From: a virus
DNA length: 64,000 nucleotides
IMG/VR virus record: IMGVR_UViG_3300042090_000646
Coordinates: 14,564 to 78,563 of that record
Direction: 5' to 3' (one strand)
In this document: one piece after another, positions 1 to 3,190 of the stretch
Numbering within the stretch: position 1 is the first letter of the stretch
Layout: each line of letters begins with the position of its first letter
Notes under the pieces: model-generated
What the model was told of the DNA's origin: nothing
Database searches by the model: none
The model's input: the letters and a program-made list of their open reading frames with translations, nothing else
Program-made: the position numbers and the translations under genes

Positions 1-212
1 CCCATAAAGGCCCGGCCCAGGGCTGTGGCCTTGGCCCGGATGGCGTCCATGGATGCCTCCCTGGTGGCCTCCTCGCGCCCGAAGGCTTCGTAGTCCTTTA
101 GAACATCCATGATGAATTTCTGGACCAGGACGGTCACGTCACCAAGGGTGCAGAGTGCGACCTTGCCCCCGGGTTCGTGCTGGAAATTGAGCCCTTCGCG
201 GAACTCGCTCAT
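1..212 (-). CDS. Hypothetical protein (runs off the window), translationally coupled to the kinase-ART gene; candidate immunity protein
   Basis: ATG at 212 overlaps the TGA at 209-211 (ATGA); frame MSEFREGLNFQHEPGGKVALCTLGDV... stays open to the window edge. Confidence 0.7.
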   Translation of the reverse strand, partial: MSEFREGLNFQHEPGGKVALCTLGDVTVLVQKFIMDVLKDYEAFGREEATREASMDAIRAKATALGRAFM

Positions 213-3190
213 GCGGCTTTCCCCTTCTTGTGCTGGTCCACTGATTCGATAAAGGTGGGATCAGGAGGAAGCATTAGCAACTCCAGTTCCATTACGCCAT
301 TATATGCCTTCCCCTTGTTGAGAATCATGAACCGTTGCCCAGGAAGGGTGGTTATCTCGCCCTCGGATCCGACCAAGTGGCCAGACCCGAAGGTATCCAC
401 GGCCTTCGCGCCATCGGCATAGTGAATCTTTAAGAGGAGATCGTGGCCGAAATGGGTATGTTCGTTCCACTCAGGTTTCTTGGAGCAGCACATGGAGTCG
501 GTGTTCTGGAACACCAGCCCCGGCTCAGCCTGTTCAAGTTGCTTCTTCATGGTGCTGGGGATATCCATCCACCGCCAGAGGCGCGTCCCCTCCGGCTTGG
601 TGACGGCATGGGCGTAAGCCTGCTTGACTGCGTCCTTTATGTTGACGTTGTAGTACGTCTCGTCGTTTCCCTTGAAATGATGGTTGACGGCTCCATCCCC
701 CTGAACCTGACTGATGTAGTTTTTGAGGTTCTGCGGCATAGTGAGGTATAGATCATGCGCCTTTGCGGTGTCGGCGCTGGTCACATTGCGCCCCGCGTTC
801 TTCGGCGTGAAATCCTGCGGATTGCCGACGCTGCCCAGGGTCATGAAGTAGCCCAGCACCTCGGAACTATCGATATTCTCAGTATTCTTGCCAAATGGTT
901 TGGAGGGAAAGGCTTCCGACAACCCCGAGACGTCTTCGGCGGTGGCCAGAGAATAGGTTTTAAGCTTCTCGGAGCCAGGATTGGCGACCACGTTCAGGTA
1001 GCCGACTAACCCGGACCAGTATTGTTTGACGTGTGTGCTGGGATGTTCCTTGATGGGGATCAGCTTGGATTCCCCTGTATTTTTGTCGATCTCATGGACC
1101 TGTAGATTCTCCAGATCCACCAGATCCCCGCGCATGGCTGCCTGGTGGACTTCCTCGGCGGCGGCTTGGTTGGCCTGGTTGACCTTCTCGTTGCCAGAGA
1201 GACCTTTGCCCTGCCCATTCCAGTCCATGAAGTTGGGCGGCTGTGGGATCTGCGCCTTGTCGACAGGGAGGTGCTTCGGGTCCGGCTTGGGCGGATGGAC
1301 GATGGCCTCTGCCTCCGGGAACTGCTTCGCCAGATAGTGTTTTCTGGCGATGAGCTTTGCAGCCAGCGCGTTCTTCTTGTTGTCATCGCCGGGGCCGAAC
1401 ATCTGGACGGCCTTCTGGATGATGTCGTCGGGCAGTTCCAGGACCGGGATCATGCTCTTGCTGATTTCATCCTGGGTCATGGTCCCGAATACGGAGGCCG
1501 CCTGGGGGTTCTTGGATGCGTCCCGAAGGGTATGGATTTCGGATACGGCATTGCCGAAGGCGTCACCCTTGAGTCCACCCTGGGCCCGGTAATCGAGGGC
1601 ACCTCCGGGGTCGATGCGCTTGGCCTTCCCATCGTTGCCTACGAGGAGGTTGTCAAAGCCCAGGCCCACCACGTCCCAGTTGGCCAGCCATGCATCCGCG
1701 CCGAATCCCTCCTTGACCCCATCCTGCTTGGCCAGAAGGCTACCGTCGGTGACCTTGGAGAGCCCTTCCTGGTAGGCCGAGGCAATGCCCAGCTTGCCGT
1801 CCTTCATGACCATCTTGGTCTTGGGCGCCCCGACCCCCATGAGGTCATAGAGCTTGGCCGCCAACATCTCGCTCTTGGCCTGGTCCTCATCCGCGGGGAA
1901 CTTGATATACCACTTCTTCCCGAAGGCGTCCTCGTAAAGACCGCCAGGGTTGGATCCGCCCTGAGGCCCGATCTGTTTGAAAGGGAAATTCTTGGGGAGG
2001 GACGGCGTAGCTACTTTGGGTGCCGCCGGCTTCTTCTCCTCCACCAGCTCCCAGTGGTGGTTGGCGTTCAGGATATAGGTCTTGCCGTTCTCGACCTTGG
2101 TATCACCAACTTTGAGGCCATCTGGTCCCGTAGCCATGCCTGTGAACTTGAGCGCGTTCTTCCACGCTTTCCCGTTCCAGCTCTTTGGGGTGGTAGAGAG
2201 CGTATGCCCGCCAGGTTCCTCCATGGTGAGCCAGCCATCCGGGGTATTGGGCAGCATCGTGTAGACCTTCCCGTTGTAGCCAAACTGCATCCCTTCCTTG
2301 ACCTGAGAGAAGGGCGGATGGGAACCCACCTCCGGGATCTTGAACTTGGGTGCCTTGGGCAGCGGGCCTTTGCTGATCTGATCCAGGACCATGGCCAGCT
2401 TTGCGTCGTCGCCGCCCTTCACCAGGAACGCCTGTTGCTTCTTCTTGTAGCCCGGGGGGTGCAGCTCTGCCAGGACCTTCTTGGCGGCGGCATTCAGGGG
2501 GACGCCGTCGTTGCCGGTCTTGTTAACCATGAAGAAGCCTCCGCTGGACTTGGAGACATGGATGTTCCCGATGTCCGCGCTTCCCCAATAGCTCATGTTC
2601 TGGAGCTTGGTCAGGATGTCGCTGGCGGAATCGCTGGTTGGAGTGAGTGGCGCTGCCGGTGCTTCCGTGGCAGGTTCCTCGGGACTTCCAGGTCTTTCCA
2701 TGCCCGCATAGAGCAAGGACTTCTGGTCATTCCACAGCTTGCTGCCGAAGTCCTTCAGGCTGGTAGTGCCATCTGCGGCGTAGGTCTTCAGGAGGTGAAC
2801 GCCGTCGCCGTTCGTGGAGATCGCCTTGAGTGTGTTCCCGGATGGATATTTGAACACCATGCCTGGCTTGAGCTGGTCGAATGGGACCTTCTGGCCCTCA
2901 AGTGGTCCGACACTCTCTGTTTTGGGCGCTTCCCCGAACATCTTGTCGAACTCCCGATCCACCCCCGAGAGGTCGTATTCGGGGGCTGCCGCAGGGGCGT
3001 GGGGTGCGGGTTCGATCTTGGCCGGTGCGGTGGTGGCCGGTGCGGTGGTGGCCGGTGCGGCCTCCGGCGCCTCCTGGGACCCACCAAAGAGGTTGTCGAA
3101 CTCCCGGTCCACGTTGTAGGTGTGCCCGCTGGTGTGGACCAGCTTGCCGTTGACAACCCGGTAGTAGTCCTTTGAATGCTTGGTGGTCAT
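209..3190 (-). CDS. Multidomain protein: PI3K/PI4K/HipA-like kinase domain plus C-terminal ADP-ribosyltransferase (VIP2/Alt-like)
   Basis: Kinase motifs GPQGGSNPGG-WYIK, SEMLAAKLY, DAWLANWD..DNLL, RIDPGG; ART motifs LWRWMD (R), TDSMCCS (S), SEGEITTLPG (ExE). Confidence 0.8.
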   Translation of the reverse strand: MTTKHSKDYYRVVNGKLVHTSGHTYNVDREFDNLFGGSQEAPEAAPATTAPATTAPAKIEPAPHAPAAAPEYDLSGVDREFDKMFGEAPKTESVGPLEGQKVPFDQLKPGMVFKYPSGNTLKAISTNGDGVHLLKTYAADGTTSLKDFGSKLWNDQKSLLYAGMERPGSPEEPATEAPAAPLTPTSDSASDILTKLQNMSYWGSADIGNIHVSKSSGGFFMVNKTGNDGVPLNAAAKKVLAELHPPGYKKKQQAFLVKGGDDAKLAMVLDQISKGPLPKAPKFKIPEVGSHPPFSQVKEGMQFGYNGKVYTMLPNTPDGWLTMEEPGGHTLSTTPKSWNGKAWKNALKFTGMATGPDGLKVGDTKVENGKTYILNANHHWELVEEKKPAAPKVATPSLPKNFPFKQIGPQGGSNPGGLYEDAFGKKWYIKFPADEDQAKSEMLAAKLYDLMGVGAPKTKMVMKDGKLGIASAYQEGLSKVTDGSLLAKQDGVKEGFGADAWLANWDVVGLGFDNLLVGNDGKAKRIDPGGALDYRAQGGLKGDAFGNAVSEIHTLRDASKNPQAASVFGTMTQDEISKSMIPVLELPDDIIQKAVQMFGPGDDNKKNALAAKLIARKHYLAKQFPEAEAIVHPPKPDPKHLPVDKAQIPQPPNFMDWNGQGKGLSGNEKVNQANQAAAEEVHQAAMRGDLVDLENLQVHEIDKNTGESKLIPIKEHPSTHVKQYWSGLVGYLNVVANPGSEKLKTYSLATAEDVSGLSEAFPSKPFGKNTENIDSSEVLGYFMTLGSVGNPQDFTPKNAGRNVTSADTAKAHDLYLTMPQNLKNYISQVQGDGAVNHHFKGNDETYYNVNIKDAVKQAYAHAVTKPEGTRLWRWMDIPSTMKKQLEQAEPGLVFQNTDSMCCSKKPEWNEHTHFGHDLLLKIHYADGAKAVDTFGSGHLVGSEGEITTLPGQRFMILNKGKAYNGVMELELLMLPPDPTFIESVDQHKKGKAA
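3021..3060. repeat. 15-bp tandem repeat (gccggtgcggtggtg, about 2.7 copies) encoding an APATT linker
   Basis: Read directly; protein AAPATTAPATTAPA. Confidence 0.85.

Follow-up and report, generated by a model that had tools for sequence, protein, structure and literature searches.

Bacteriophage T4 packages its Alt protein, an arginine-specific ADP-ribosyltransferase (ART), in the head and injects it, and phage-delivered ARTs have become a textbook takeover mechanism, studied mainly in that phage. T4 ModA and ModB and the T7 gp0.7 kinase act as takeover enzymes inside the infected cell. The polyvalent proteins of phages were described by Iyer et al. 2017 (PMC5512222), and ARTs and Nudix hydrolases often occur as fusions to MuF or portal proteins or are encoded next to the head genes, above all in myoviruses (PMC9503650). 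R-S-E (Alt/VIP2) ARTs were stated to be absent from genuine polyvalent proteins, and a different, truncated Ser/Thr/Tyr kinase was described in phages of Verrucomicrobia and Bacteroidetes (PMC5512222). The coupling of ARTs and Nudix proteins to a kinase of CtkA/HipA-like type finds no mention in PMC5512222, PMC9503650, PMC5576092 or the other open-access literature searched. Here we analyse P0001, a gene product that combines a predicted kinase with a predicted ART, in a 64-kb stretch (hereafter, the window; positions 14,564 to 78,563) of the linear, 78,563-bp virus contig IMGVR_UViG_3300042090_000646 from IMG/VR. The contig is 56% complete according to CheckV and is assigned by PHROG matches to a contractile-tailed phage (myovirus).

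Domain organisation and predicted folds of P0001

P0001 is one minus-strand open reading frame (ORF) of 993 residues at 209..3190 of the window, as given by the ORF list and its translation, with a GC content at third codon positions (GC3) of 0.77. A preliminary description, made from the sequence alone, had placed a kinase-plus-ART effector at 209-1990. This interval covers the conserved C-terminal 594 residues, but the gene reaches 3190, so that the variable N-terminal 400 residues had been omitted. The protein is divided as follows, in the order variable N-terminal region, kinase, middle domain and ART:

209..3190, minus strand: P0001, whole gene
1994..3190, minus strand: N-terminal region of about 400 residues, which varies among relatives
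1295..1981, minus strand: protein-kinase-like domain, residues ~404-632 (AlphaFold2 model, structural matches, invariant residues)
1223..1294, minus strand: Pro-rich linker, residues ~633-656 (sequence; low model confidence at the tail of the first model and the start of the second)
824..1222, minus strand: conserved middle domain, residues ~657-789 (helices and a beta-hairpin)
245..823, minus strand: ADP-ribosyltransferase domain, residues ~790-982 (R873, C901-C902-S903, E943-G-E945)

All the kinase and ART motifs quoted in the preliminary description were located, once each, in the P0001 ORF. Those of the kinase are GPQGGSNPGG (residues 408-417, window 1940-1969), WYIK (427-430, 1901-1912), SEMLAA (440-445, 1856-1873), DAWLANWD (499-506, 1673-1696) and RIDPGG (525-530, 1601-1618), and those of the ART are LWRW (871-874, 569-580), SMCCS (899-903, 482-496) and EGE (943-945, 356-364).

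The folds of both enzymes were revealed by structure prediction alone, as sequence and profile searches all failed. Pfam, searched with the whole of P0001 and per domain up to an E-value of 10, returned nothing for the kinase or the ART, including PF00454 (PI3K/PI4K) for the protein and PF03496 or PF01129 for the ART. HipA_N, HipA_C and Couple_hipA were found neither in P0001 nor in the neighbouring genes, and NCBIfam and PHROGs yielded nothing for P0001. Searches of the PDB by phmmer and with three profiles gave only spurious matches to TolA, L23 and RNase P, and a kinase-only profile found no kinase there.

Two AlphaFold2 models were computed from family alignments, spanning residues 400-660 and 655-993, respectively. 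The former, with a predicted local distance difference test score (pLDDT) of 95.4, shows a two-lobed, protein-kinase-like fold. When compared using VIA-align, it superposes best with CtkA from H. pylori (3akl; Z 16.1, 210 residues aligned, root-mean-square deviation 3.3), followed by CotH (Z 13.3), PI4KIIbeta (Z 13.0), HipA (Z 12.4) and the N-terminal kinase of Legionella LepB (Z 11.9), against a Z of about 8 for ordinary eukaryotic-type kinases. The Foldseek ranking of the neighbours concurs. CtkA, HipA, HipT, CotH, PI4KII and LepB are the closest solved folds to residues ~400-632, and their Lys/Glu/Asp/Asn/Asp set is present in P0001, although its identity with CtkA, HipA, CotH, PI4KII and LepB is just 11-17%. 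The domain is laid out as a G-loop (residues 408-417), Lys430, Glu441, the segment D499..N504.D506..N514 and Asp527. From the order of these motifs, Lys430 is predicted to bind ATP, Glu441 to be the helix-C glutamate, Asp506 and Asn514 to be catalytic and Asp527 to bind magnesium. Unlike HipA, the P0001 kinase is devoid of the HipA N-terminal domains, and no HipB/HipS-type partner was recognised; moreover, the spacing between Asp506, the presumed catalytic residue, and Asn514 exceeds that of the usual D-x4-N.

The second model (pLDDT 91.7) contains an ART fold with an NAD cleft at residues ~790-982, for which VIA-align found C3bot (Z 13.4, 178 residues aligned, root-mean-square deviation 3.1), iota Ia (Z 12.8) and VIP2 (Z 12.7). 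The best Foldseek match is Tre1, a toxin of the type VI secretion system (6drh; E 4e-8, probability 1.00), with C3bot, VIP2 and CDTa as further matches, the range being E 4e-8 to 1e-6. C3, VIP2, iota, CDTa and Tre1 are the closest solved folds (Z 12-13.4) and have the ExE loop in common with P0001, a motif that is the signature of arginine-specific ADP-ribosyltransferases. P0001 differs from them in sequence (10-19% identity), in carrying C-[T/C]-S for STS, and in being fused to a kinase in a phage context. Alignment with T4 Alt by hhalign was weak and non-significant (E 0.054 over 57 columns), and pairs the stretch around R873 with L-Y-R of Alt and C-C-S with its S-T-S.

The check by structure prediction and Foldseek proposed in the preliminary description gave a match for both predicted folds, kinase and ART. 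The R-S-ExE transferase of VIP2-like type that it had read from the motifs is well founded, as the fold is nearest to C3, iota, VIP2 and Tre1 and the catalytic ExE residues are invariant. Its PI3K/PI4K/HipA-like kinase holds at the level of the fold, with CtkA, CotH, PI4KII, HipA and LepB as the nearest structures, but not at that of sequence models, as no HipA or PI3/4-kinase model matches.

Structural matches of the ART begin at residue ~136-145 of the second model, leaving the middle domain uncovered. The latter has a pLDDT of about 90 over most of its length, with dips to about 80 around residues 735-755, and is conserved in 56 of 81 viral loci examined by tblastn, with S665 and N674 invariant. 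In the N-terminal region, for which neither Pfam nor NCBIfam gave a match (MPTase-PolyVal, at E 0.099, is non-significant), we found two motifs, YRVVNGKLV (residues 10-18, window 3137-3163) and GDTK..NGK..Y.L (residues 362-374, window 2069-2107), as well as a beta-rich segment that is present twice. BLAST alignments of P0001 to its relatives mostly start only at residue ~404.

Conservation was analysed by cutting the module from 215 full-length relatives (37-77% identity) and aligning it. Kinase residues G412, G416, K430, E441, D499, N504, D506, N514 and D527 are invariant in all 215, as are both glutamates of the ExE loop, E943 and E945, and stand-alone homologues of the kinase retain the same catalytic set. 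With such conservation, the motifs read from the sequence are no chance occurrence. The remaining ART motifs are more variable: R873, at the "R" position, is arginine in 153 of the 215 sequences and lysine in 61 (28%), and the "STS" triplet is C901-C902-S903 in P0001 and C-[T/C]-S in the family, with C901 kept in 207 relatives, S903 in 210 and a serine at the first position in only eight. Because the catalytic residues are invariant across these relatives, we conclude from the alignment that both kinase and ART are under selection as enzymes and are apparently active. The altered STS, the arginine/lysine variation at the first ART motif and the failure of every sequence model to recognise either domain would fit one of them being a catalytically dead scaffold, a pseudokinase or a pseudo-ART, but this is highly improbable given that all canonical kinase residues and both ExE glutamates are retained without exception.

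Family, fusion partners and conserved gene neighbourhood

A word-indexed search retrieved at least 574 relatives of P0001, and an HMMER scan of 1.84 billion cluster representatives found 4,790 at E ≤ 0.001, each standing for a cluster at 50% identity, and 1,184 at E ≤ 1e-30. In nearly all top matches, the conserved part corresponds to query residues ~404-985 and lies C-terminally in proteins of 700 to more than 2,000 residues, whose N-termini are mutually unrelated; a WGR domain was found in seven of 40 relatives scanned. The full module occurs in cultured phages, namely Aeromonas phage ST4, Pseudomonas phages Jeremy, Dolphis and Touem01, Yersinia phage fHe-Yen8-01 and Morganella phage Mecenats66, and annotated members from cultured phages carry the label "ADP-ribosyltransferase". 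The kinase part alone was found in Gordonia phages and in two enterobacterial phages. A scan of IMG/VR detected a relative in 365 viral contigs, many of them of 85-97 kb.

The combination of the two enzymes had been presented in the preliminary description as unusual for a temperate phage, and neither adjective is supported by these results. Since the module occurs in 4,790 clusters, "unusual" is unsupported, and the family counts among the commoner large phage protein families. As to "temperate", no Phage_integrase or Resolvase match was found in the 78.5-kb contig, which, as this is incomplete, is no proof, and the cultured relatives include Mecenats66, a myovirus related to Dolphis (PMC9503643); yet some relatives are chromosomal.

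The kinase has several fusion partners. It is C-terminal to a Nudix domain in single ORFs from L028, L075 and L076, as found by ORF reconstruction and Pfam, and it follows a MuF domain (PF04233) in MuF-kinase-ART proteins of L070 and L071, the ART of which matches both PF01129 and PF03496. In the MuF-kinase proteins of L054 and L079, a different region of about 550 residues is found at the C-terminus. When the family profile was compared with the L071 protein by hhalign, only the kinase aligned (E 1e-62), so that the kinase is paired with at least two lineages of R-S-E ART. In BFVD, the kinase fold was found inside phage proteins annotated as HK97 portal, head-morphogenesis protein, ADP-ribosyltransferase (including one from Mycobacterium phage Onyinye) and Nudix hydrolase. 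An ART of the P0001 type is hardly ever found without the kinase, with three short matches against 75 stand-alone kinases. In genomes of the Pseudomonas syringae group (L110, L112, L119 and L137, about 6001-7290), the kinase directly precedes or is fused to a Nudix domain, which is the reverse of the order in L028, L075 and L076.

Downstream of P0001, the following partner genes were analysed:

1..212, minus strand: start of orf152 (P0245), which as a whole spans contig C1:14317-14775
C1 ~14270-14300: N-terminus of the Nudix protein (PF00293, E 4e-12)
C1:12422-12814, minus strand: orf130 (P0244), a domain of ~100 residues, outside the window

The stop codon of the ART overlaps the ATG of orf152 (ATGA), and the stop codon of orf152 in turn overlaps that of Met74 in the long Nudix ORF, making this methionine the likely start of the Nudix protein. 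No family match and no Atlas feature match was obtained for orf152, its structural matches all being below a TM score of 0.5, but homologues occupy the same position in 25 viral and five bacterial loci. Over its ~100 residues, orf130 has 18 invariant positions at 40-63% identity and is more conserved than the enzymes. The invariant residues include W2, FLS 9-11, VRxR 26-29, DY 50-51, R54, YxNFK 75-79 and W95; Pfam, NCBIfam, PHROG and the PDB returned no match. An Atlas structure search aligned it to part of a Nudix-containing cluster, which is a lead only.

The neighbouring proteins of the window were further searched by tblastn against the 81 viral loci fetched, which revealed the Nudix protein in 61, orf130 in 67 and orf152 in 25. 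The partner genes (small ORF, Nudix and ~100-residue ORF), which the preliminary description had missed, are tightly conserved with the kinase-ART gene: at 30-60% identity, the order is nearly always kinase-ART, orf152, Nudix and orf130, as it also is in phages ST4 and Jeremy and in five bacterial loci, with chromosomes or metagenome-assembled genome (MAG) contigs of Geminicoccus, Microvirga, Mesorhizobium and an Armatimonadia MAG, presumably in prophages. In Oxalobacter, the kinase, Nudix and orf130 are present, but neither ART nor orf152 came up at the threshold used. Of all neighbours, orf130 accompanies the kinase most faithfully, as it also follows kinases that have neither Nudix nor an ART of the P0001 type, e.g. 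in L070 and L078.

This arrangement bears on two alternative readings of the locus. In one, P0001 would be a polymorphic toxin carried by the phage, to which orf152 would confer immunity, serving superinfection exclusion or bacterial competition and not host takeover. The best Foldseek match, Tre1, is indeed a member of a toxin/immunity pair, translational coupling links P0001 to a small, rapidly evolving ORF immediately downstream, temperate phages are known to encode toxins fused to MuF together with immunity genes (PMC5576092), and relatives are found in bacterial chromosomes. However, P0001 has no MuF domain, the module is common in myovirus contigs of ~90 kb and in cultured phages, and such a pair would leave the conserved Nudix and orf130 unexplained, so that we regard this reading as very unlikely.

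In the other, the kinase, the ART, the Nudix hydrolase and the ~100-residue protein would form a single sequential pathway acting on one substrate, in which an ADP-ribosyl mark would be trimmed to phosphoribosyl by the Nudix enzyme and/or be phosphorylated, or NAD/ADP-ribose-derived immune signals or nucleic acid would be the target. In its favour, the kinase is fused alternately to ART and Nudix, the latter in both orders, the four-gene order is conserved at 30-60% identity, the ART is nearly never found without the kinase, as the above counts indicate, the Atlas search ties orf130 to a Nudix-containing cluster, and small-molecule and lipid kinases are among the structural neighbours of the kinase. 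Nevertheless, the structures that the kinase matches with the highest Z belong to protein kinases (CtkA, CotH and HipA), an ExE loop on a C3/VIP2-like fold is typical of protein-arginine ARTs, and the domains of polyvalent proteins are often functionally independent (PMC5512222). We consider a common pathway distinctly unlikely.

Setting beside the head genes and proposed function

P0001 is the third gene of a minus-strand block (P0003, P0002 and P0001), of which P0003 is the first and is divergent from the head module. Past the window start, the block continues with orf152, Nudix, orf130, a DUF2793 tail-fibre-like ORF, a MuF_C-like ORF and a polyvalent protein. The genes flanking the junction with the head module and those at the far end of the block are:

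8981-10420, plus strand: major head protein (PHROG)
8081-8920, plus strand: probably the scaffold gene
7149-8084, plus strand: gene with a weak match to head maturation proteases
5827..7119, minus strand: P0003, 430 residues, low-complexity sequence rich in His/Lys/Ala/Glu, two copies of an NGK motif, no family match
3194..5812, minus strand: P0002, 872 residues, low-complexity sequence rich in His/Lys/Ala/Glu, one copy of the NGK motif, no family match
C1:10605-11222: ORF of 205 residues with a weak MuF_C/PBECR2 match, just upstream of the polyvalent protein
C1:4510-10434, minus strand: polyvalent protein, 1,974 residues; InPase domain (PF18823, E 1.5e-46) at the N-terminus, SNF2-type helicase split by an intein (PF14890)

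A minus-strand ORF at 8003-8941 was discarded as a gene, because its substitutions relative to L004 (77% identical) fall at third codon positions of the plus-strand frame 8081-8920, and for the same reason 7149-8084, 8081-8920 and the major head gene are taken to be the true genes.

The reading that we favour, at a probability of roughly 0.55 and by analogy with described systems, is that P0001 is a head-packaged or very early host-modifying effector of the polyvalent/MuF-effector kind. It is favoured because the gene lies beside the head module, in a minus-strand block divergent from the protease-like, scaffold-like and major head genes, because a polyvalent protein is encoded in that same block, and because the kinase is joined to MuF or portal proteins in relatives. 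On the same grounds, the injection with the DNA proposed in the preliminary description is plausible. The folds, the conserved catalytic residues, the fusions and the gene order are observed directly, whereas packaging, timing of action, substrates and what the partner genes do are what we infer. P0001 would be made together with the head proteins, loaded into the capsid and released into the cell along with the DNA or, alternatively, would act very early in infection. There, the kinase, of the CtkA/HipA/PI4KII/CotH branch, would phosphorylate host proteins and the C3/VIP2/Alt-like mono-ART would ADP-ribosylate them, redirecting or disarming the cell. P0001 would work within a conserved unit of four genes. 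The small, fast-evolving orf152, whose translation is coupled to that of the ART, might be an inhibitor or a chaperone, which is a guess; the Nudix hydrolase would probably process ADP-ribose, NAD or the ADP-ribosyl mark; and orf130, very conserved and following the kinase wherever found, is a candidate kinase partner. P0002 and P0003, situated between the head module and the kinase-ART gene, are candidate internal head or ejection proteins.

Several observations weigh against such an effector. Family scans found no MuF, portal, LPD or other known virion-anchoring domain in P0001. The top structural neighbours of the kinase include lipid and small-molecule kinases, so that a protein substrate is not certain, and the chemistry of the ART may differ from that of the classical arginine-specific toxins, given the cysteine at the first "STS" position and the lysine at the "R" position in 28% of relatives. 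Furthermore, fusion in polyvalent proteins is no proof of cooperation, and kinase and ART may hit unrelated targets.

The lack of an anchoring domain would also fit the same enzymes being made in the infected cell without being packaged, as a takeover enzyme in the manner of T4 ModA/ModB and T7 gp0.7, with the variable N-terminus binding targets. Some relatives carry the nucleic-acid-binding WGR domain instead, and in ST4 and Jeremy the gene sits amid methylase, AraC-like and nuclease genes, not structural ones. This reading is possible but unlikely, as fusions of this kinase to MuF and to portal are found repeatedly, the P0001 gene is beside the head module in this contig, and an N-terminal motif common to four neighbouring proteins suggests a common destination.

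The motif in question, aromatic/His-x-Arg-x-h-Asn-Gly-Lys-x-Val-x-Val, is present in five copies in the contig, all of them in four proteins that the effector block encodes side by side; three copies are N-terminal:

3137-3163: P0001
~5440-5470: P0002
~7030-7060 and ~6690-6720: P0003
C1 ~14270-14300: N-terminus of the Nudix protein

The closest contigs (L004/L005, L006 and L007) have it as well, at the N-termini of the Nudix protein and its neighbours, and about 15 metagenomic relatives have it at residues 10-13, but it is not found in the wider family. The motif may serve these proteins as a common tag for docking or for targeting to the capsid. A bolder proposal, which we consider quite unlikely, is that the four components would write a compound, hard-to-erase mark on a host target, such as Arg-ADP-ribose that is cut back to phosphoribose and/or phosphorylated, or destroy NAD/ADP-ribose-derived immune signals, with the h-R-x-h-N-G-K-x-V-x-V tag as a capsid-loading signal that, in this clade, replaces fusion to MuF or portal. 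If true, this would represent a widespread, undescribed phage chemistry of counter-defence or takeover.

The effector reading can be set against the known systems in turn. P0001 resembles T4 Alt in that both are long phage proteins with a C-terminal ART of R-S-ExE type and in that it is proposed to act on host proteins as infection begins, but Alt has no kinase domain, and its packaging and protease processing are shown, whereas the packaging of P0001 is what we infer. T7 gp0.7 is likened to it by proposed role alone, as a phage kinase that would modify many host proteins early; it is the product of an early gene of its own, with no ART fused to it. Like the polyvalent and MuF/portal effectors, P0001 is a large multi-enzyme phage protein with an ART as main modifier, in a Nudix context and near myovirus head genes, and, as in polyvalent proteins, two effector domains, kinase and ART, are joined in one phage-encoded polypeptide. 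It differs from polyvalent proteins in possessing a full CtkA/HipA/PI4KII-like kinase unseen by Pfam and in being without MuF, MPTase and LPD; anchoring or associated domains are found elsewhere, namely MuF and portal in relatives, and MuF_C-like and InPase in neighbouring genes.

Thousands of phage lineages pair such an ART with a kinase that is invisible to annotation models, with a Nudix and a small gene alongside. As the module is present in cultured phages of tractable hosts (Pseudomonas putida, Aeromonas, Yersinia and Morganella), its targets, its timing and the cooperation of its parts are directly testable. Many phage genomes would also be better annotated if family models were built for the kinase, for this variant of the ART and for the ~100-residue partner.

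Other genes of the contig

A megablast search with 25 kb against phage records gave no match. The remaining structural and packaging genes were assigned by PHROG as follows:

11684-14518: baseplate wedge proteins
21219-23222: tail sheath
48301-50367: large terminase
50361-52235: portal

PHROG matches further identified RecT, an exonuclease, DnaB, DNA methyltransferases, thymidylate synthase and an endolysin. Following the baseplate wedge genes, a plus-strand gene at 14515-16557 encodes a protein of 680 residues with a C-terminal M23-like metallo-endopeptidase domain, which is likely a tail-associated cell-wall hydrolase.

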